This document shows positions 1 to 37,184 of a DNA stretch of 64,000 nt, in pieces. A model generated the notes under the pieces. That model was not told the origin of the DNA and did not search any database. It saw only the letters and a list, made by a program, of their open reading frames with translations. The stretch comes from a virus (Duplodnaviria > Heunggongvirae > Uroviricota > Caudoviricetes). The position numbers were made by a program, and so were the translations under genes. The DNA is taken from positions 23,342-87,341 of IMG/VR virus record IMGVR_UViG_2529293038_000017; one strand, given 5' to 3'. Within the stretch, counting starts at the first letter, position 1; each line of letters opens with the position of its first letter.

Positions 1-1668
1 CGGGGCCGGTTCTGGCTGAGTAATCTCACCGACTTCGGCCTGCAATGCATTGATCATGCTCTGCACCATTTTCTCGGTGCCAGCGCCCCCAGGAAACGCA
101 ATATTGGGGAAAGTTTTTTGAAACTGAGTTTTCAGCATTACGCGGAACTCGTCTGGTGAGCTGGTGGCCAGCTCCAGAGCTTTTTGTGCATATTTGCCAA
201 ACGGACCATTAGTAAGTGTCTTCGCCAGGAAGTCGAAAGAATCCTCGCGAGGCAATAACTTCAGGTCGTACTCACTCATTTGCTGATCAGAAAGCGGGGT
301 ATCGTAAGTAGCAATGCCGTAGCGTGCATATTCATAATACGGGTCACCTTCATCAGGGCGCGGCAGAATTGCTTTGTTACCTTCAGGTATTGCGCCAGGG
401 GCCGCCGGACGCATTTGCAGGGCATATCGATATGCACCTACAGAGACTTCTGGTTCAGGCGAAGAGCTACCGGTATCCTCCGCTGGTTCAGGTTCGACGT
501 TTTCCGGTTTATGTTCTTCTGGTTGGACCAGGTATTCCGATACATTACCCGCTTTATAGGCTTTAAACAGCTTGCCGATCGCATCTGCCATGTCCACACC
601 CTGTATGGATTTAGCCTTGATCATGTATACGCTGCCATCCGGATCGGTTAACTGGATATACCCTTCGCCGCCCCCAATGAATTGCTTCATTGATGCACCA
701 TTACTGAGCGTCACTTCCCCGTCCATATGCATACGATTTTTGATACTGGCAAGGCGATCCGTCAGCGCGCGAGAGTGCCCACCAGTCATCCCCGCTGGAG
801 CAATGGTATCGCGCCCACCAGTGCGATTGAGCTGATTAATCTCCGTCTGCAAACGCTCATTCTCTTCATAAAGAGAATCCGCTTCCGATGCAACAGCGTT
901 AATTTTCTGCTCCAGATCTGCCTTCTGCCCTTCTACCGCTGCCACCTGATCCGCGAGGTCGCTCATGGCATCCTCTTTCTGGTCACTGTCAGCCTGTAGT
1001 TGGGTTATTTCATCAACAAGGGCTTTTTTCTTCTTCTGCGCACGCTGGAATTTTGCCGAGTTTTTCTCTGCAAGGTTGGCAAGTTTCATGGTGACCTGCG
1101 CCAGCGTCATATCACGTCCACTCATCGGAGCAACGGTGTGAGTAACGTCTTTTTTATTCAGTAAGAACTGGAAAGCAACCAGCGTATCGCTATTGGTGAT
1201 CCGGTTTTCCGCTGTCGGGCTATGAAACAGAATGCTGATAGTCTGACCATCACTGAGCGGAATAATGGCTGGCAAGACCGGCAGCCCGTTAACGTTACGT
1301 GCCCGGCCAATTTCAGCGCCGCCGATCGCGCGCGCGCCGCTCTGGGCCACATCCCCCGTTTTATCACTCCCCGCAGAGATTCCGGTACCATTCAGCTTCT
1401 GGTTCAATGCCCGGACAAATGCCTGCATGGTCCGGTGTAACTGCAAACGAGTAGAACTAATCGCCTCCAGTAAATCCGTAGCACACCAGTGGATCGGCGT
1501 GTCATAGAAGAACGTAGCCTCGATTTCCTCCAGGGTGTTGGATTCCGTCATCAGATAGCGGTCCTCACCGGCCATTAATGCGCGATATTCATCATCAGTC
1601 ACTGGCGGGGGAAGCACGTCAAGCCCAGGCTTGATCGTCACCCCTTTATTGATATTGAACTGTTCCAT
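1..1668 (-). CDS. large coiled-coil protein, 5' part only (ATG at 1668, runs off window edge); DarA-like antirestriction/head protein suggested by position only
   Basis: Manual translation gives 556 open codons on minus strand to position 1; RBS AGGAAA 6 nt upstream of ATG. Absent from ORF track because edge-truncated. Product by synteny with P1 dar operon (recollection). Confidence 0.45.
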   Translation of the reverse strand, partial: MEQFNINKGVTIKPGLDVLPPPVTDDEYRALMAGEDRYLMTESNTLEEIEATFFYDTPIHWCATDLLEAISSTRLQLHRTMQAFVRALNQKLNGTGISAGSDKTGDVAQSGARAIGGAEIGRARNVNGLPVLPAIIPLSDGQTISILFHSPTAENRITNSDTLVAFQFLLNKKDVTHTVAPMSGRDMTLAQVTMKLANLAEKNSAKFQRAQKKKKALVDEITQLQADSDQKEDAMSDLADQVAAVEGQKADLEQKINAVASEADSLYEENERLQTEINQLNRTGGRDTIAPAGMTGGHSRALTDRLASIKNRMHMDGEVTLSNGASMKQFIGGGEGYIQLTDPDGSVYMIKAKSIQGVDMADAIGKLFKAYKAGNVSEYLVQPEEHKPENVEPEPAEDTGSSSPEPEVSVGAYRYALQMRPAAPGAIPEGNKAILPRPDEGDPYYEYARYGIATYDTPLSDQQMSEYDLKLLPREDSFDFLAKTLTNGPFGKYAQKALELATSSPDEFRVMLKTQFQKTFPNIAFPGGAGTEKMVQSMINALQAEVGEITQPEPAP

Positions 1669-16298: not shown

Positions 16299-16775
16299 TT
16301 ATTTTGCGCGCTTCAGGCAGCCATCTTCAGGTGCCGCGTTGAAAAGCTCTGCGGCCTTACGTAGCGTAAATGTTGCGATTTTTTTTCCGTCTACGTATGC
16401 ATCGAATGTTTTAACTTCCATATCAGGGGTATCTGACCAAAAACCATACCAGTAACTATCACCCACAGAGGAACCGATAGAACTGATAGGATATTCATCA
16501 TCACCAACTTTCAGCGTTATTTGTTCTTTTTTAGCATCAAATGACTCACCGCCAGGTTCTGTTTTCATGAGAGTGAGTAGTCGTGTTCCTACTTGATTGG
16601 GATCCGTATTATTAAATCCAACATCGCACTCAAATGTAAGCGTATAATTATCTTTGCTGGAAACAGCATAAGAGCGAACGCCATGAGTCTCGCTGGTGGA
16701 CCATTTGCTTACATTTGCCATTGATGAAAACGGAGTAAGCAAAGCAAGAATTAGAAAATATCGTTTGATGCGCAT
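16299..16775 (-). CDS. secreted protein with signal peptide (158 aa)
   Basis: N-terminus MRIKRYFLILALLTPFSSMA. Confidence 0.55.
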   Translation of the reverse strand: MRIKRYFLILALLTPFSSMANVSKWSTSETHGVRSYAVSSKDNYTLTFECDVGFNNTDPNQVGTRLLTLMKTEPGGESFDAKKEQITLKVGDDEYPISSIGSSVGDSYWYGFWSDTPDMEVKTFDAYVDGKKIATFTLRKAAELFNAAPEDGCLKRAK

Positions 16776-16826
16776 TAATTTATCTCCTTTGGATATTAAT
16801 ATTTTAATTAGTTAACCACCATATAT

Positions 16827-17474
16827 TCACCATTCATAGGGTAAATTAAGCGCTTTTAAACCTTGCTGGAAAGTATTAAGAGAGCCGTTTTTTTGTTGTT
16901 CCATTTTTTCGCGTGCAGCTTTCTCATACTGCTCCATCCGTTGGTTATACTCTTGCAATTCCTCCGGGGAGAGGTTTCCCATTGGGGAGTTTGTACCCGG
17001 CCCCCTGGCCCGTTCTTCAAGCGTACCCTGAACGTTTTGATGGCGCATTCCCGGGGCGTTTCTGATTGAATCAATGCCATTTCTTCCAACGTCTTCTTTA
17101 TTAACGGCATTGCTCGCCACCAGTACGCCCCAGCTAGGGATAGCAAAATCAGGAGCGGTTTCGCATGCCTTTACCATATAATCGAAAGAGCTTCGATTGA
17201 TCTCGTTTGCGTCGGGATTTAATAGGCGAGAATATTGATATTTAGCATTTTCGTTGGTTGCGACTTTATACAGTTCTTGCTGCACCATCGCTTCAGAAAG
17301 TTTAAGGCGTTTCATATCTGATAGTAACTTCTTGCGCATGGATTCGTCTTGACTGACAGCAAAACCGTAAACGTGCCCAAGGTATTTCGTATAATCGGTA
17401 CAAATCTCCTTTACGCTTGATGCTGCATTAACAGTCCCAGCCATAAATAATAACGGTAGTAATAGTTTTCTCAT
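16827..17474 (-). CDS. Sim-like secreted superinfection-exclusion candidate; carries a Sit-derived motif
   Basis: Start set to ATG 17474 (AGGTGAGG upstream) giving signal peptide MRKLLLPLLFMAGTVNA; segment NAPGMRHQNVQGTLEERAR matches Sit (GMRREVVQGTLEERAR, NSPGMRKNN) at protein and DNA level. Confidence 0.55.
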   Translation of the reverse strand: MRKLLLPLLFMAGTVNAASSVKEICTDYTKYLGHVYGFAVSQDESMRKKLLSDMKRLKLSEAMVQQELYKVATNENAKYQYSRLLNPDANEINRSSFDYMVKACETAPDFAIPSWGVLVASNAVNKEDVGRNGIDSIRNAPGMRHQNVQGTLEERARGPGTNSPMGNLSPEELQEYNQRMEQYEKAAREKMEQQKNGSLNTFQQGLKALNLPYEW

Positions 17475-17569
17475 TATAACCTCACCTGCCTTATAACTCA
17501 TTTAGGGTACATATTTTCGCCTTTAAAAAAAGAGGTTATTAGATCCAATTGTGTATTTATTAAGCATAT

Positions 17570-17586
17570 AATGCTCTAATAAATTT
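17570..17586 (+). promoter_or_regulatory. C1-repressor-type operator upstream of immI-like operon
   Basis: AATGCTCTAATAAATTT, 1 mismatch to recalled P1 operator consensus ATTGCTCTAATAAATTT. Confidence 0.65.
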
Positions 17587-17624
17587 GTATTTTTAAGTCG
17601 CGAATGCTATCTTTTCGCATCATA

Positions 17625-17653
17625 TTGACCTTTTAATCGTTCAGGCTTATAGT
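17625..17653 (+). promoter_or_regulatory. sigma70-like promoter (TTGACC-17-TATAGT)
   Basis: Hexamers with 17-bp spacer, upstream of c4-like/icd/ant region. Confidence 0.4.
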
Positions 17654-17749
17654 TCCGCCGTCGTAGCAAATTCTGCGACCGGGTTTAGCAGCCTGAATGA
17701 TTGTGCGGACAGCCGCAGATATCCGATATTGCGGTATTTTTGTGTCCGT

Positions 17750-17830
17750 AAAACCGCGTTACGCCCAAATTATGGTGGGGCGTGATGGGGAGGCTTCGGC
17801 CTGCTGGTTTCACAATCGCCAGTCTGCTAA
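17750..17830 (+). ncRNA. c4-like antisense RNA repressor region (approximate)
   Basis: Noncoding leader upstream of icd; CCTGCT and TCACAATC (17808..17825) complementary to AGCAGG and GATTGTGA (17875..17892) overlapping the icd RBS; GC hairpin AGGC-TTCG-GCCT. Confidence 0.4.
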
Positions 17831-17900
17831 CCCCGTCACGTCCTGCCACCTGTTTAGCAGCGGGTAGCAGGTTGTTAAACCTGATTGTGAGGCCGTAACT

Positions 17901-18122
17901 ATGGTTAATGCCAATCCTTGCGCACGCCAAGAATTCATCTGGCGTTTCTATTCCTGTAAAAAACACCACTATCACTTCGTTATCGCAGCAACTGAAGACG
18001 AAGCACGCTCTCAATTGCCTGATGGCCCCTGCATTTTTACTGCCCGTTTTTCAACTAACTCGCGCAATTCACTTAGTTACTGGAACCTCCCCTTCTCTGC
18101 CGACGTTCAGGGGGTTTTATGA
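17901..18122 (+). CDS. icd: Icd-like small protein (73 aa)
   Basis: ORF ends with ATGA overlap onto ant start; position downstream of c4-like leader. Confidence 0.55.
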   Translation: MVNANPCARQEFIWRFYSCKKHHYHFVIAATEDEARSQLPDGPCIFTARFSTNSRNSLSYWNLPFSADVQGVL

Positions 18123-19156
18123 AAAAACCTCTCGTCACCCGTAATGACATAGCCGAAGCGATCGCCCTGCATACTGCCTGTATGCCGACACGGGAGATCC
18201 CCGGCGCAATTGCCAACTATTTCATGATAACCAGACGTTTTTATACCCGAACAGATAAGGCTGTGATCAACAGGCTACTGATAGCCGAGATCAGGGATTA
18301 TTTGATTGAACAAGGACGTCTACGTTACGCAACAGTGGCAGCAGAAATGAGAAAGGAGGCACATATAATGACCGGTAATAATTTGAATGTTGAAAAACCA
18401 GCACCTGTTACGTCAGCTACGCCAGCACCAGCCGTGAATATTATCCCCAACACCGGAGACACAATCGACAGCCTGACACTGTTAAAGATGGTCAATGAAG
18501 CGCGTAAGTTATGTGGGGAACCAGAGGTTCGGAACAACAAATTCATCGAAAAAATACTCGATGAGCTTGATGGTGAGCACTACACAAAAAGTGTAGTGGA
18601 AAAAATGAACAAAACATCAATGCTTGTCATAACCATGACTTTCAAACAAGCCCTGCGAGTCGCCGCGCGCGAGTCAAAAGCGGTCCGCCGTTCGCTGATC
18701 GACAAACTGGAAGAATTACAGCAGGCAAACTCCCCTACCCCATCGATCCCCCAGACATTACCAGAAGCCCTACGCCTGGCTGCCGAGTTAGCAGAACAGA
18801 AAATGCAGTTGGAACAACAGCTGGTGGCCGCAGCCCCTAAAGTCGATTTTGCCGACCGGGTATCAGTGGCCAATGGAATCCTGATCGGGAACTTTGCAAA
18901 GGTCGTTGGACTTAAGCAAAACGCTCTTTTCTCATGGTTGCGCCAGAATGGCATTCTCATGGCTTTTGGAGCGCGCAAAAACGTACCGCGCCAACAGTAC
19001 ATCAACGCCGGGTATTTCACTGTGAAAGAAGTGGTGCTGGATGATGAAAATGGCTACCAGATACGGCTGACGCCCCAATTAACGGGTAAAGGCCAGCAGT
19101 GGTTAACTCGCAAGCTACTTGATGCTGGTTTGTTAAAACCAGTAGCAATAGGTTAA
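18119..19156 (+). CDS. ant: antirepressor Ant (long form)
   Basis: 345 aa; C-terminal domain shared with KilA ORF (LPEALRLAAELAEQK...GKGQQWL). Confidence 0.75.
   Translation: MKKPLVTRNDIAEAIALHTACMPTREIPGAIANYFMITRRFYTRTDKAVINRLLIAEIRDYLIEQGRLRYATVAAEMRKEAHIMTGNNLNVEKPAPVTSATPAPAVNIIPNTGDTIDSLTLLKMVNEARKLCGEPEVRNNKFIEKILDELDGEHYTKSVVEKMNKTSMLVITMTFKQALRVAARESKAVRRSLIDKLEELQQANSPTPSIPQTLPEALRLAAELAEQKMQLEQQLVAAAPKVDFADRVSVANGILIGNFAKVVGLKQNALFSWLRQNGILMAFGARKNVPRQQYINAGYFTVKEVVLDDENGYQIRLTPQLTGKGQQWLTRKLLDAGLLKPVAIG
18368..19156 (+). CDS. antirepressor short form from in-frame internal start (Ant2-like)
   Basis: Internal ATG at 18368 preceded by AGGAGG 8 nt upstream. Confidence 0.45.
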   Translation: MTGNNLNVEKPAPVTSATPAPAVNIIPNTGDTIDSLTLLKMVNEARKLCGEPEVRNNKFIEKILDELDGEHYTKSVVEKMNKTSMLVITMTFKQALRVAARESKAVRRSLIDKLEELQQANSPTPSIPQTLPEALRLAAELAEQKMQLEQQLVAAAPKVDFADRVSVANGILIGNFAKVVGLKQNALFSWLRQNGILMAFGARKNVPRQQYINAGYFTVKEVVLDDENGYQIRLTPQLTGKGQQWLTRKLLDAGLLKPVAIG

Positions 19157-19233
19157 CAAAAGAAAAAACCTGCCAGCAAACTGGCAGGTTTCTGAGCAGA
19201 TCGACCAACCCGATCTGGATCGAGTTAGAAAAA

Positions 19234-19250
19234 TTTGCTCTAATAAATTT
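19234..19250 (+). promoter_or_regulatory. C1-type operator upstream of kilA
   Basis: TTTGCTCTAATAAATTT, 1 mismatch to consensus. Confidence 0.65.
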
Positions 19251-19319
19251 CGTTTTCTAAGTGCAAAGAATCACCATTTCGAGCTGGTGATTGAAGGTTG
19301 ATGCAAATTTGGAGAAAAA

Positions 19320-20120
19320 ATGCAACAAACATTCAATGCGGATATGAATATATCAAACCTTCATCAAAATGTCGATCCTTCAACCACTCTGCCTGTTATT
19401 TGTGGTGTTGAAATTACGACCGACCGAGCTGGCCGTTACAACCTTAATGCTCTACACAGAGCGAGCGGACTCGGTGCCCATAAAGCGCCAGCTCAATGGC
19501 TAAGAACGCTGTCAGCTAAACAGCTCATCGAAGAGCTTGAAAAAGAAACTATGCAGAATTGCATAGTTTCGTTCGAAGGCCGTGGCGGCGGCACTTTTGC
19601 CCATGAATTGCTCGCAGTGGAGTACGCAGGCTGGATTTCTCCCGCGTTTCGGCTGAAGGTAAACCAGACATTTATCGACTATCGAGCCGGAAGATTACAA
19701 CCTGCTATTCCGAAGAGCCTCCCAGAAGCTCTCCGTTTGGCTGCTGACCTGGCAGAGCAAAAGCAACGGCTGGAGCAAAAAATGCTGATGGATGCACCTA
19801 AAGTCGAATTCGCCGAACGCGTTGCTACCGCCAGCGGGGTTCTAATCGGCAACTATGCCAAAGTGCTCGGCCTGGGCCAAAACTATCTCTTCACCTGGTT
19901 GCGTGATAACGGAATTCTGATCGCAACCGGTGAACGCAGGAACGTCCCCAAACAAGAATACATATCCCGTGGGTATTTCACCCTTAAAGAAACCGTGATC
20001 GATACAAGCAATGGAAGCAGGATTTCTTTCACGACTCGTATAACCGGCAAAGGTCAGCAGTGGCTGATGAAGCGATTGCTTGATGCTGGTGTGCTGGTAC
20101 CTGTCGCGGCAACGCGCTAA
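19320..20120 (+). CDS. kilA: KilA-N domain protein with Ant-type C-terminal domain
   Basis: 266 aa; N-terminal KilA-N-like region; C-terminal ~130 aa homologous to Ant C-terminus. Confidence 0.75.
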   Translation: MQQTFNADMNISNLHQNVDPSTTLPVICGVEITTDRAGRYNLNALHRASGLGAHKAPAQWLRTLSAKQLIEELEKETMQNCIVSFEGRGGGTFAHELLAVEYAGWISPAFRLKVNQTFIDYRAGRLQPAIPKSLPEALRLAADLAEQKQRLEQKMLMDAPKVEFAERVATASGVLIGNYAKVLGLGQNYLFTWLRDNGILIATGERRNVPKQEYISRGYFTLKETVIDTSNGSRISFTTRITGKGQQWLMKRLLDAGVLVPVAATR

Positions 20121-20149
20121 CAGACGTAGTAAGAACCACCAGCATTGTA

Positions 20150-20728
20150 ATGCTGGCTAAAGTCACTTTCCTGAGCTGTATAACGATGAGCGATTTTACT
20201 TTTTCTGGCTATGAATTGGCCTGCTTTGTAACACACTCCGGTCTATCCCGTAGCGCCGGGCATATCCTGTCGCAATGTGCAAATCTCGCGGCAACAACCA
20301 GTGAATACTTCATTCACAAGCCTCACCGCCTGATCGCGGCAGAAACTGGTTATAGCCAATCAACCGTCGTTCGTGCATTCCGTGAAGCTGTAAACAAAGG
20401 AATTCTGTCTGTAGAGATTGTTATCGGCGATCACCGTGAACGTCGCGCTAACCTGTACCGGTTTACACCATCCTTTTTGGCCTTCGCACAACAAGCCAAA
20501 AATGCGCTGATTGAAAGCAAATTAAAGATCTCTTCAGCGGCAACCAAGGTTAAAGCTGTTCTCGCTAAGACATTGGCTTTATTTAATTTTTTATCCACAC
20601 CCCCATGTCAAAATGATACCCCCTCCCCCTGTCAGGATGACGTGGCAATAAAGAATAAGAAGTCACAAGTTAAAAAACAAAAAGATCAGTTTCCGGCGGT
20701 GCCGGAACGACCAGACTCAAAAAATTGA
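20150..20728 (+). CDS. RepL-like lytic replication protein candidate (by position after kilA)
   Basis: 192-aa ORF; start uncertain; no motif confirmation. Confidence 0.35.
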   Translation: MLAKVTFLSCITMSDFTFSGYELACFVTHSGLSRSAGHILSQCANLAATTSEYFIHKPHRLIAAETGYSQSTVVRAFREAVNKGILSVEIVIGDHRERRANLYRFTPSFLAFAQQAKNALIESKLKISSAATKVKAVLAKTLALFNFLSTPPCQNDTPSPCQDDVAIKNKKSQVKKQKDQFPAVPERPDSKN

Positions 20729-20994
20729 CTTCATGGATCGCTGAGGCAAAAGCAAAGGCTGACAATCTGCGGTTATCCAAAAAACGCGCTCAAAAACATG
20801 AGTTCAAGCAGAAAGTAGAGGCGGCAGCGCGGAAATATGCTTACCTGAAGAACAAGCGTTCTCCTGATATTGGCGGGGTATCAAACTTCGATAATCTGCC
20901 GCATTGCATGACGGTAAACGAAGCTCTTAATGCGGTTTTAGCCAAAAATAAAGATAACGAACAATGGGGTATACCGGCAGGATTCAGAGGGTGA
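20725..20994 (+). CDS. hypothetical basic protein (89 aa)
   Basis: ORF with start overlapping upstream stop. Confidence 0.45.
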   Translation: MTSWIAEAKAKADNLRLSKKRAQKHEFKQKVEAAARKYAYLKNKRSPDIGGVSNFDNLPHCMTVNEALNAVLAKNKDNEQWGIPAGFRG

Positions 20995-21290
20995 TAGATT
21001 GCTCTAATCTGGAGTCACCTGGCGTTTTCAGTTTGAGGTCGGAGATGCAATCTGATTTTTTACAGTTAGCAATCGCTTTTGCAGGATATGTTTGTATTGG
21101 CTTCTGTGTATACATGATCAGCCGAAAAATGCTTGTCGATATCGACCGCAAAGAACAAGCAGAGAAGATCTTAGTATGGATTTTCTTTGGCGCGGTCTGG
21201 CCATTAGGGATCATGTTTGCTGCAACATTTCTTCTGATGTGGATATTCACCCTTCCAGGTGATTTCTATAGAAAAAAAGCCAGACATTGA
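20964..21290 (+). CDS. small membrane protein (108 aa)
   Basis: Two hydrophobic helices (LAIAFAGYVCIGFCVYMI, ILVWIFFGAVWPLGIMFAATFLLMWIF). Confidence 0.45.
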   Translation: MGYTGRIQRVIDCSNLESPGVFSLRSEMQSDFLQLAIAFAGYVCIGFCVYMISRKMLVDIDRKEQAEKILVWIFFGAVWPLGIMFAATFLLMWIFTLPGDFYRKKARH

Positions 21291-21413
21291 TACAATCGTT
21301 GCGGGTGCTTGAGGCTATCTGCTTCAGGCATTACCCGAAAAGCAGATAGAAGAAAGCCCCAGATAACATTACGCGTCCTGCAAGACGCTTAACATTAATC
21401 TGAGGCCATATCT

Positions 21414-35151: not shown

Positions 35152-37166
35152 AAGAGCTGTGCTATGGATCTGTTTGCAGTGGAATTGAAGCCGCGAGTAT
35201 TGCCTGGGAACCGTTGGGTATGCGTCCGGCGTGGTTTGCTGAAATCGAGCCTTTTCCATCTGCCGTTCTTGCGCACCGCTGGCCCCATGTCGCCAACCTT
35301 GGCGACATGACAAAACTTGCCAAAAAAGTCCTGGCTGGGGAAATCGAATCCCCTGATGTGCTCGTCGGGGGTACGCCTTGTCAGGCATTCAGTATCGCGG
35401 GCTTACGTGGTGGGCTTGATGATGAACGCGGCGCGCTAACTTTGAAGTATGTGGAGCTTGCAAATGCAATTGACGACAAACGGTCTGAGTCCTTCCTCAA
35501 ACCGACAGTTATCGTCTGGGAAAATGTCCCAGGAGTCCTGTCATCGGCAGATAACGCCTTCGGATGTTTCCTTGCCGGATTGGCTGGAGAAGATGCGCCA
35601 TTTGAACCAGGTGATCGACCTGAATCAGGAAAAAGTAACGCGTTCTGGCGGTGGGATGGCAAAACCGGTTGCCATGCTCCAAAGTGGCCGCAGTGTGGTT
35701 GTATTTATGGACCGCAGCGAAAGGTGGCCTGGAGAATCCTTGATGCCCAATACTTCGGAGTGGCACAACGACGCCGACGCGTGTTTGTTGTCGCAAGTGC
35801 TCGAACAGACCTCGATCCCGCAACGGTACTTTTTGAGTTCGAAGGCGTGCGCCGGAATATTGCGCCGAGCAGAGGCGAGGGGAAGGAAACTACCAGATAT
35901 ACTTCAAACATCGCTATCAGATCTTGCGATGATACAAACATAGTTGCCATGGCACATGGGCAAGGAGGGGCTGAGATAAAAACCGATAATTCGGCACCAA
36001 CTTTGACATGTAACCATGAAGCACCAATTGTATTGCTCGTCGACGGTAGAATGCGCCGTCTTATCCCTGTCGAATGTGAAAGGCTGCAAGGTTTTCCTGA
36101 TGGACATACATTGATCCCTACGGAAAAGCGTAAAAAAGTTTCTTCAGATGAACTGGCATACCTTCGCAAAAACTATCCTGATTTGAGCGAAGAAGAGGCC
36201 GCGATGCTTGCAGCTGACGGACCGCGTTACAAAGCGATCGGCAATAGTATGGCGATACCAGTAATGCGCTGGATTGGCGATCGGATTGCCAAGGCTGCAT
36301 GTCGGCAGAAGGAAGGGAGTGAAACAAAAGAGCGAAAAGTTAAACCAGCGGCAGAATTCGAACGGTCCATATTCAAATGGGCTGGTGGAAAATTTGGTGT
36401 TCTGGAACAAATCTTTCGCTATTTGCCAGAAGGGAAGCGCCTGATTGAGCCTTTCGTTGGTGGCGGAGCTGTCTTCATGAATGCCGGATACCAGGAAAAT
36501 CTGCTAAATGATGTGAATGCTGACCTGATTAACTTTTACAAGACTCTGCAACGCGAGGCGCATTCACTTATCACTCTGGCACATCGTTTCTTCCAGGACT
36601 ACAACACGCAGGAAGGATACCTGGCAGTACGGAATGCGTTTAACAAACAAGTCTATGATGATTTACATCGCGCAGCGGCGTTTTTGTTCCTGAACCGACA
36701 TTGTTTTAACGGATTGACGCGTTACAACCAAGCCGGTGAGTTCAATGTCGGTTATGGGAAGTATAAAACTCCGTATTTCCCATTGCAGGAGATGGAAGCC
36801 TTCCTTGGTGCGGAAGGGCGTTCTGAGTTTGTATGTGGTGATTTTGCTGCGGTGATTGAAGCTGCCGGAGAAGGAGATGTCATCTTTTGCGATCCGCCGT
36901 ATGAACCGCTCCCAAATACAGAGGGATTCACGAACTATTCCGGTCATGACTTTAAGTTTGAAGAGCAAAAACGCCTGGCGTCTCTGTTGACGGATGCTCA
37001 TCGCCGAGGTGCAAAGGTTCTCATTACTAACAGTGGCGCGCCAAACATCAGAGAACTTTATCAGGACAGTGGCTTCAGAGTGGAACCTCTTTTTGCCAGA
37101 CGTTCTGTGTCTTGTAAGGGGGACACTCGAGGTGTTGCTCATGACGTTATAGCAATATTGCTCTAA
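35148..37166 (+). CDS. dmt: bifunctional DNA methyltransferase: N-terminal C5-cytosine MTase fused to C-terminal Dam-like N6-adenine MTase
   Basis: [12 protein letters not shown] and ENVPG motifs in N-half; Dam motifs FKWAGGK...[10 protein letters not shown] and FCDPPYEP in C-half. Confidence 0.88.
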
Positions 37167-37184
37167 TAAATTTATTAGTGTAAT
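37157..37184. promoter_or_regulatory. bipartite C1-type operator (perfect consensus plus overlapping inverted copy)
   Basis: ATTGCTCTAATAAATTT (37157..37173) overlapping AAATTTATTAGTGTAAT (rc has 2 mismatches). Confidence 0.75.

Follow-up and report, generated by a model that had tools for sequence, protein, structure and literature searches.

A P1-type ant-kilA region: in-frame starts in ant and the C-terminal module shared with KilA

The antirepressor of phage P1, the isolation of which PMC5944126 credits to Riedel et al. 1993, is an Ant1-Ant2 dimer that binds the C1 repressor (PMC8546580; PMC8198154). Its synthesis is repressed both by C1 and by C4 RNA (PMC8546580; PMC8198154): C1 blocks ant through repression of the c4-icd-ant1/2 operon, and C4 RNA is also needed for full repression (PMC8198154). 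Among the sequence records, X15639 lists ant1 and ant2 along with a ribosome-binding site and names the products 'antirepressor proteins 1 and 2', and NC_005856 annotates ant1 and ant2 with 'formation of Ant1/Ant2/C1 complex', gives Op51 and Op53 as C1 operators and describes icd as "apparently required for expression of ant". The P1 reference record additionally contains promoters P2c4/P1c4 (P51a/b), the a1/b1 and a2/b2 target sites, three Dam sites, a promoter PkilA (P53) overlapped by the operator OrepL/Op53, an antisense promoter PaskilA, and repL/oriL. In a CRISPRi screen, ant1, ant2, kilA and repL were found to be non-essential for lytic growth of P1 (PMC10695390). In P1, both isoforms of Ant, the way they are controlled and the domain shared by Ant and KilA have been known for decades, and they appear in database records and in the name of a Pfam family.

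The sequence analysed here, hereafter the window, is a 64,000-nucleotide stretch of IMG/VR virus record IMGVR_UViG_2529293038_000017. A megablast search with window positions 17400-20800 matched phage P1 over the full length of 3.4 kb, at 96.6% DNA identity and in unchanged gene order; among phage records vB_EcoM-Ro157c2YLVW comes nearest, with 98.5% identity, and P7, RCS47, SJ46 and others are 96-97% identical. The P1 records X15639 and NC_005856 annotate Op51, c4 RNA, icd, ant1, the ribosome-binding site, ant2, Op53, kilA and repL at equivalent positions, and the c4-icd-ant-kilA-repL synteny is accompanied by orthology of Ant to P1 Ant1 (94% amino acid identity). Because of this DNA identity, the shared gene order, the annotation matches, the C4 RNA and the operators, the region is almost certainly the immI antirepressor operon and adjoining lytic replicon of a P1-like phage-plasmid, and none of the data speak against this. 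Past repL, the similarity to P1 stops within the next operator, Op55.

Operators and transcription units of the P1-type region

Operators for C1 were sought by scanning the window with the consensus ATTGCTCTAATAAATTT and counting one-mismatch matches, of which there are 9, against 0.25 expected. Predicted operators, each with one mismatch, lie at 17570-17586 and at 19234-19250, both on the + strand, as are the features that follow unless stated otherwise. The upstream operator matches a protein_bind feature of P1, 'monovalent C1-controlled operator Oc4; former Op51', and stands at the head of the immI operon. It is followed by a predicted sigma-70 promoter at 17625..17653 (TTGACC-17-TATAGT, 10/12 matches), annotated in P1 as P1c4 (former P51b), by the a1/b1 targets of the C4 antisense RNA at 17647..17699 (Rfam RF03163 c4-a1b1, 55.5 bits, gathering 46.7), and by the gene for the C4 antisense RNA itself at 17768..17853 (Rfam RF01695, 69.6 bits, gathering 45, E=1e-12), which matches the P1 c4 misc_RNA. 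The next open reading frame, icd (17901..18122), encodes a 73-aa cell-division inhibitor recognised by NCBIfam NF033153 phage_ICD_like (52.7 bits) and present in P1 as icd; its stop codon overlaps the start codon of ant1 (ATGA). As in the P1/P7 immI operon (c4 - icd - ant1/ant2), Op51, the P51 promoters, C4 RNA, the a/b sites and icd occur in the window in the same order and at the same positions, icd overlaps ant1, and ant has the same internal ribosome-binding site and ant2 start.

The initial annotation had placed ant and kilA each downstream of its own C1-type operator. The operators at 17570 and 19234 stand, but the antisense RNA c4 and icd intervene before ant, and Ant is not simply or directly under its operator; rather, the operon led by Op51 consists of c4 antisense RNA, icd and ant1/2. 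Transcripts from the Op51-controlled promoters would carry c4 RNA, icd and ant, and in the prophage state the synthesis of Ant1/Ant2 would be held off by C1 at Op51 together with C4 antisense RNA. The part assigned here to C4 and icd in the control of ant is by analogy, taken from the literature and records on P1.

A strong predicted hairpin at 19166..19191 (-18.1 kcal/mol, z=-4.5, with 0/200 shuffles folding as well) separates the ant and kilA transcription units; it resembles a terminator and was scored by a pattern scan as one on the - strand. Beyond it lies the second operator, Op53 (OrepL, 19234..19250), which overlaps the promoter P53/PkilA and is described in P1 as a site that 'controls expression of kilA and repL'. 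The kilA gene (19320..20120) encodes 266 aa, and within its 5' end, on the - strand at 19347..19375, is a predicted antisense promoter P53as (TCGACA-17-TATATT, extended TG) that corresponds to PaskilA of P1. Downstream, repL, the gene for the lytic replication initiator, extends over 20150..20994 in alignment to P1 repL. The arrangement of operator, antisense promoter, kilA and repL is the same as in the P1 lytic replicon (Op53/P53 - kilA - repL (oriL), with P53as), and kilA and repL would be expressed from P53 under separate control by C1. The window differs from P1, however, by a 1-nt deletion that shortens an A7 run of repL to A6 near 20672 and leaves two ORFs, one of 192 and the other of 89 aa, in place of the single frame. 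An intact P1 lytic replicon is therefore not what the sequence presents: with repL frameshifted, the replicon may be non-functional, or the frameshift may be a homopolymer error of the sequence.

The internal start and architecture of Ant

The ant1 frame (18119..19156) encodes the long antirepressor isoform, a protein of 345 aa as compared with 347 aa in P1, and the differences between the two cluster in a patch at residues 158-169 that includes a 2-aa deletion. The earlier observation of an internal ATG preceded by AGGAGG was borne out: the ATG at 18368-18370 is codon 84, in frame with Ant, and an 8-nt spacer separates it from the AGGAGG at 18354..18359. It opens a frame of 262 aa (ant2, 18368..19156) at the position equivalent to the annotated ant2 CDS of P1; in X15639 a ribosome_binding_site precedes the ant2 start by a few nt. 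The long and short isoforms that had been proposed from this arrangement fit the P1 records (X15639, and ant1/ant2 in NC_005856) as well as the papers on P1.

Conservation of the internal start was followed in close and in diverged relatives. The close set consists of 80 IMG/VR loci in which the N-terminal 205 aa of Ant are 83-100% identical, yielding 61 distinct ant sequences; kilA follows ant at about 160 nt in 74 of these 80 loci. The Shine-Dalgarno AGGAGG is invariant among the 61 alleles, as is AGAAAGGAGG (61/61). At codon 84, 55 alleles have ATG, the remaining 6 have GTG and none has a codon unable to initiate, and the codon of the nearby Met77 is ATA in P1. Since the 180 nt upstream (18179-18358) are also nearly invariant in the close alleles, invariance of the Shine-Dalgarno is itself weak evidence, and the alternation between ATG and GTG is the informative part. 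Two diverged relatives, found when 1.8 billion representatives were searched, retain AAGGAGG-N8-ATG: P0124 (locus L085), with 68% identity over the N-terminal 205 aa of Ant, and P0133 (locus L082, a D6-like element in which c1 comes after icd-ant), with 49% over the same segment. In both loci many synonymous sites just upstream have changed, and the Lys and Glu codons that form the Shine-Dalgarno keep their final G. In P0133 an ORF6N domain follows the internal Met in place of the middle domain of Ant, so that the internal start coincides with a module boundary.

The two starts differ in how the RNA around them is predicted to fold. Around the ant2 start, a segment of 81 nt folds more weakly than 189 of 200 shuffles, which indicates an open and unstructured site. 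The GGGGG Shine-Dalgarno of ant1 is predicted to be base-paired within a local hairpin whose loop contains the AUG. Ant1 would be initiated at the ATG overlapping the stop codon of icd, from a weak Shine-Dalgarno buried in a hairpin, and Ant2 at codon 84, where the AGGAGG site is strong and unstructured. The hairpin makes it probable that translation of ant1 depends on ribosomes arriving from icd; such coupling is compatible with, and not proven by, the occluded Shine-Dalgarno, the overlap of icd stop and ant1 ATG, and the note on icd in P1. Once made, Ant1 and Ant2 would jointly bind and inactivate the C1 repressor, an activity known for the P1 complex and carried over here to the window by analogy.

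Models of both isoforms were built with AlphaFold2 from alignments of representatives (mean pLDDT 89 for Ant2 and 82 for Ant1). In Ant1, four helices at residues 8-85 (pLDDT 57-75) are followed by a disordered Pro/Ala/Thr-rich linker at 86-110 (below 50), an alpha/beta winged domain at 115-204 (about 97), one long helix at 214-250 and an alpha/beta KilAC domain at 256-335 (both mostly above 90). M84 falls at the end of the four-helix N-terminal unit, directly before the disordered linker. No Pfam family reaches its gathering score in residues 1-231 of Ant, which take in the N-terminal and middle parts, and neither Ant nor KilA gave a meaningful hit when their sequences were searched against the PDB. 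In a Foldseek search of viral models, the model of Ant2 aligned along its whole length with phage antirepressor and KilA proteins (E 1e-12 to 1e-8). The best 120 matches listed in a protein homologue search with Ant are all near-identical E. coli Ant proteins.

The representative sequences reach further. Most of the best 150 of 307 representatives are proteins of 220-300 aa in which the first ~100 residues match Ant 108-203. The conserved middle domain starts 14-31 residues from the N-terminus in 60 such relatives, as compared with 37 in Ant2 and 120 in Ant1, and the Pfam ANT domain is found in 28 of the 61 aligned sequences (Ant2 and the 60 relatives). The segment specific to Ant1 (residues 1-83) occurs in about ten clusters only among the representatives listed. 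Because most relatives of the middle domain begin just before that domain, we infer that Ant2 has the common, putatively ancestral layout of a stand-alone antirepressor, and that the 83-aa extension of Ant1 would be a lineage-specific addition confined to few lineages.

The C-terminal module of Ant and KilA

The initial annotation also held the C-termini of Ant (345 aa) and KilA (266 aa) to be collinear homologues and called for a pairwise alignment. That alignment is highly significant, with a BLASTP E=2e-65 at 50% identity across 202 aligned positions and a Smith-Waterman score of 478, against 34 +/- 5 for 300 shuffles of KilA, and it establishes an ungapped module of 140 aa. Residues 206-345 of Ant align with 126-266 of KilA over 140 codons, with 63% amino acid and 62% nucleotide identity. 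In Pfam, PF03374 ANT/KilAC ("Phage antirepressor protein KilAC domain") covers Ant 232-334 at 106.3 bits and KilA 152-254 at 112.2 bits, with a gathering cut-off of 25.3. The module, predicted by AlphaFold2 in Ant to be a long helix followed by the KilAC globular domain, spans 18734..19153 in ant (BLASTP, Pfam and codon alignment) and 19695..20117 in kilA (BLASTP, Pfam, codon alignment and tblastn). A tblastn search with each part shows these to be the sole two copies within the window.

According to PMC5944126, which cites Iyer, Koonin and Aravind 2002, KilA-C was originally recognised at the C-terminus of KilA from P1. Members of the PF03374 family usually carry KilAC at the C-terminus, after an N-terminal domain that varies, and both proteins here conform to this. 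They differ in what precedes it: KilA carries KilA-N (PF04383, residues 27-123, 75.4 bits against a gathering score of 23.8), and the N-terminal and middle parts of Ant fall outside Pfam, with no match to PF04383 for the middle domain at 111-204. Natural variants of Ant have domains inserted or replaced exactly at the module boundary. The Gp07 protein of staphylococcal phage phi11 (Bro-N + KilAC) has the same two-domain layout with a C-terminal KilAC and, like P1 KilA, is toxic when over-expressed (PMC5944126); its N-terminal domain is a different one, and neither expression as two isoforms nor control by antisense RNA is reported for it in PMC5944126.

Homology of Ant and KilA beyond the C-terminal module was considered, and no support for it emerged. 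The BLASTP alignment does reach back to Ant 157 and KilA 67; however, the pairwise score of Ant 84-205 against KilA 1-125 is no better than that of 183/1000 shuffles, and a profile-sequence hhalign comparison of the Ant2-family profile with the KilA N-terminus gave a probability of 0.4%. The middle domain of Ant and the KilA-N region of KilA match one and the same part of the mixed profile phrog_63, and 3 of the 61 relatives match Phage_pRha, weakly. KilA would be an old paralogue of Ant in its C-terminal half only, with a KilA-N that differs from the N-terminal part of Ant.

Competing explanations and significance

Two rival accounts of these observations were weighed against the P1-type reading. 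The ATG at 18368 could be a plain internal Met of a single Ant protein, with AGGAGG a by-product of its Lys-Glu-Ala codons. In keeping with this, AGGAGG-N5-10-ATG is not over-represented in the window, where 5 instances are found against 2.6 expected (15 of 100 shuffles reach 5) and two of the five open ORFs of just 11 and 32 aa, and the stretch at 18179-18358 varies little among close ant alleles in any case. The motif is not rare, and sequence alone is therefore no proof of a start; conservation and the P1 records supply it. The records give ant2 and its ribosome-binding site as a separate product, the Ant1-Ant2 dimer is described in the papers (PMC8546580; PMC8198154), codon 84 switches solely between ATG and GTG, the G-ending codons of the Shine-Dalgarno are kept by lineages with changes at neighbouring synonymous sites, and position 84 is a domain boundary about 20 residues upstream of where the stand-alone relatives start. 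A single Ant protein is accordingly very improbable. The likeness of the Ant and KilA C-termini might reflect recent tandem duplication or ongoing gene conversion rather than an old shuffled domain, since the two KilAC copies lie about 1 kb apart on one strand and align gap-free at 63% amino acid identity. Their nucleotide identity is nevertheless only 62%, falling to 39% at third positions, and at four-fold degenerate sites in identical residues just 13 of 36 agree, so that synonymous sites look saturated; KilAC is moreover a widespread Pfam family paired with many different N-terminal domains, and the domain insertions and replacements in Ant variants fall precisely at the module boundary. 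Recent gene conversion between the two copies was rejected on the apparent saturation, and recent origin by either route is highly unlikely. With synonymous sites apparently saturated, the Ant/KilA paralogy would be old (or the copies acquired separately), and the two would not be undergoing homogenisation.

A further proposal would add to the P1-type reading without excluding it, namely that KilA acts as a second antirepressor through its helix and KilAC domain, by binding C1 or by mixing with Ant1/Ant2. The shared module is 63% identical in the two proteins, a predicted helix of 37 residues within it could serve in oligomerisation, and RefSeq labels KilA an 'anti-repressor'. That name is domain-based, however, and kilA lies behind a C1-repressed promoter, so that it could act only once derepression is under way. 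P1 KilA has a known killing phenotype. The KilAC domain of phi11 Gp07 inhibits growth by itself (PMC5944126), which fits killing by KilA without a role on C1. An antirepressor function of KilA is on balance unlikely. The combined scenario, in which Ant2 is ancestral, a later Ant1 extension in P1 and D6 ties part of antirepressor synthesis to translation of icd, and KilA is a second antirepressor that joins Ant1/Ant2 or binds C1, is distinctly unlikely as a whole. If true, an antirepressor encoded in the lytic replicon and expressed after derepression begins would constitute a positive-feedback step in P1 induction.

The shared C-terminal domain and the two Ant isoforms were recovered by the initial annotation from the sequence alone, and since they are known and experimentally established, their recovery is useful mainly as a check and carries little weight for discovery. 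The picture established for P1 is unchanged. What the comparison adds is context: conservation of the ant2 start, the stand-alone architecture of Ant2, module boundaries at codon 84 and at "IPQTLPEALRLAA", and a paralogy between Ant and KilA that appears to be old.

Variation in the middle domain of Ant

Comparison of 61 distinct, closely related ant alleles reveals a hypervariable patch at window positions 18509-18628, corresponding to Ant residues 131-170, in which 16-28 sites per 30 nt are polymorphic. The first 390 nt of the gene (18119-18508) contain 1-10 such sites per 30 nt across the same alleles, and the part of ant downstream of 18628 mostly 4-13. In an AlphaFold2 model, the patch maps to the second helix and the β-hairpin "wing" of the Ant middle domain. 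The segment in which this Ant differs from that of P1 falls in the same 131-170 patch, possibly a hot spot for recombination or for changes in specificity.

Some P1-like elements encode longer Ant proteins of 462-469 aa (IMG/VR loci L062, L067, L075, L076 and L077; protein P0121) with an extra domain of ~125 aa, inserted exactly before the IPQTLPEALRLAAELAEQK helix that begins the module shared by Ant and KilA. The sequence pattern of this extra domain, together with a Pfam ORF6N match on a related protein, P0133, makes it look ORF6N-like. P0133 (370 aa), encoded at loci L082-L084 in E. coli assemblies (D6-like phage-plasmids), retains the N-terminal 83 aa of the long isoform, Ant1, as well as the internal Shine-Dalgarno sequence and ATG, and an ORF6N domain replaces the Ant middle domain. 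These D6-like loci lack kilA, and immediately after ant come a c1 repressor gene in convergent orientation and a gene for a Cre-like integrase.

The region upstream of ant

The c4 a1/b1 target region, upstream of the C4 RNA, is overlapped by a sub-threshold Rfam match to isrK (RF01394) at 17660-17741, which scores 43.7 bits where the gathering score is 50. On the other side of Op51, the C1 operator that heads the c4-icd-ant operon, the minus strand carries upstream ORFs of 224 and 158 aa (16299-17501) with signal-peptide-like N-termini, at the location of simA, simB and simC in P1. Judged from these ORFs, organization of the sim region may differ from that in P1.

repL and the downstream limit of P1 similarity

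Alignment to P1 repL places a frameshift near 20672 in the plus-strand lytic replication initiator gene (20150-20994), where a 1-nt homopolymer deletion (A7 in P1, A6 here) breaks the reading frame into two ORFs, 192 and 89 aa long. Of 58 related IMG/VR loci, three (L031, L049 and L078) share the A6 form. Two readings are open to it: an error in sequencing the homopolymer, or a variant that arises repeatedly by slippage and inactivates the initiator.

In the stretch around ~21000-21300, similarity to P1 ends within the next C1 operator, Op55/Orlf, where ATTGCTCTAAT is retained and divergence follows. Here rlfA of P1 is replaced by a hydrophobic 108-aa ORF (20964-21290), and the operator appears, from this alignment, to be a recombination breakpoint.

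Dispersed C1-operator-like sites

Seven additional C1-operator-like sites are present elsewhere in the window (33881, 37157/37168, 49550, 53174/53223 and 55315); two of them overlap in inverted orientation at 37157-37184. These putative operators are consistent with the dispersed C1 regulon of P1.
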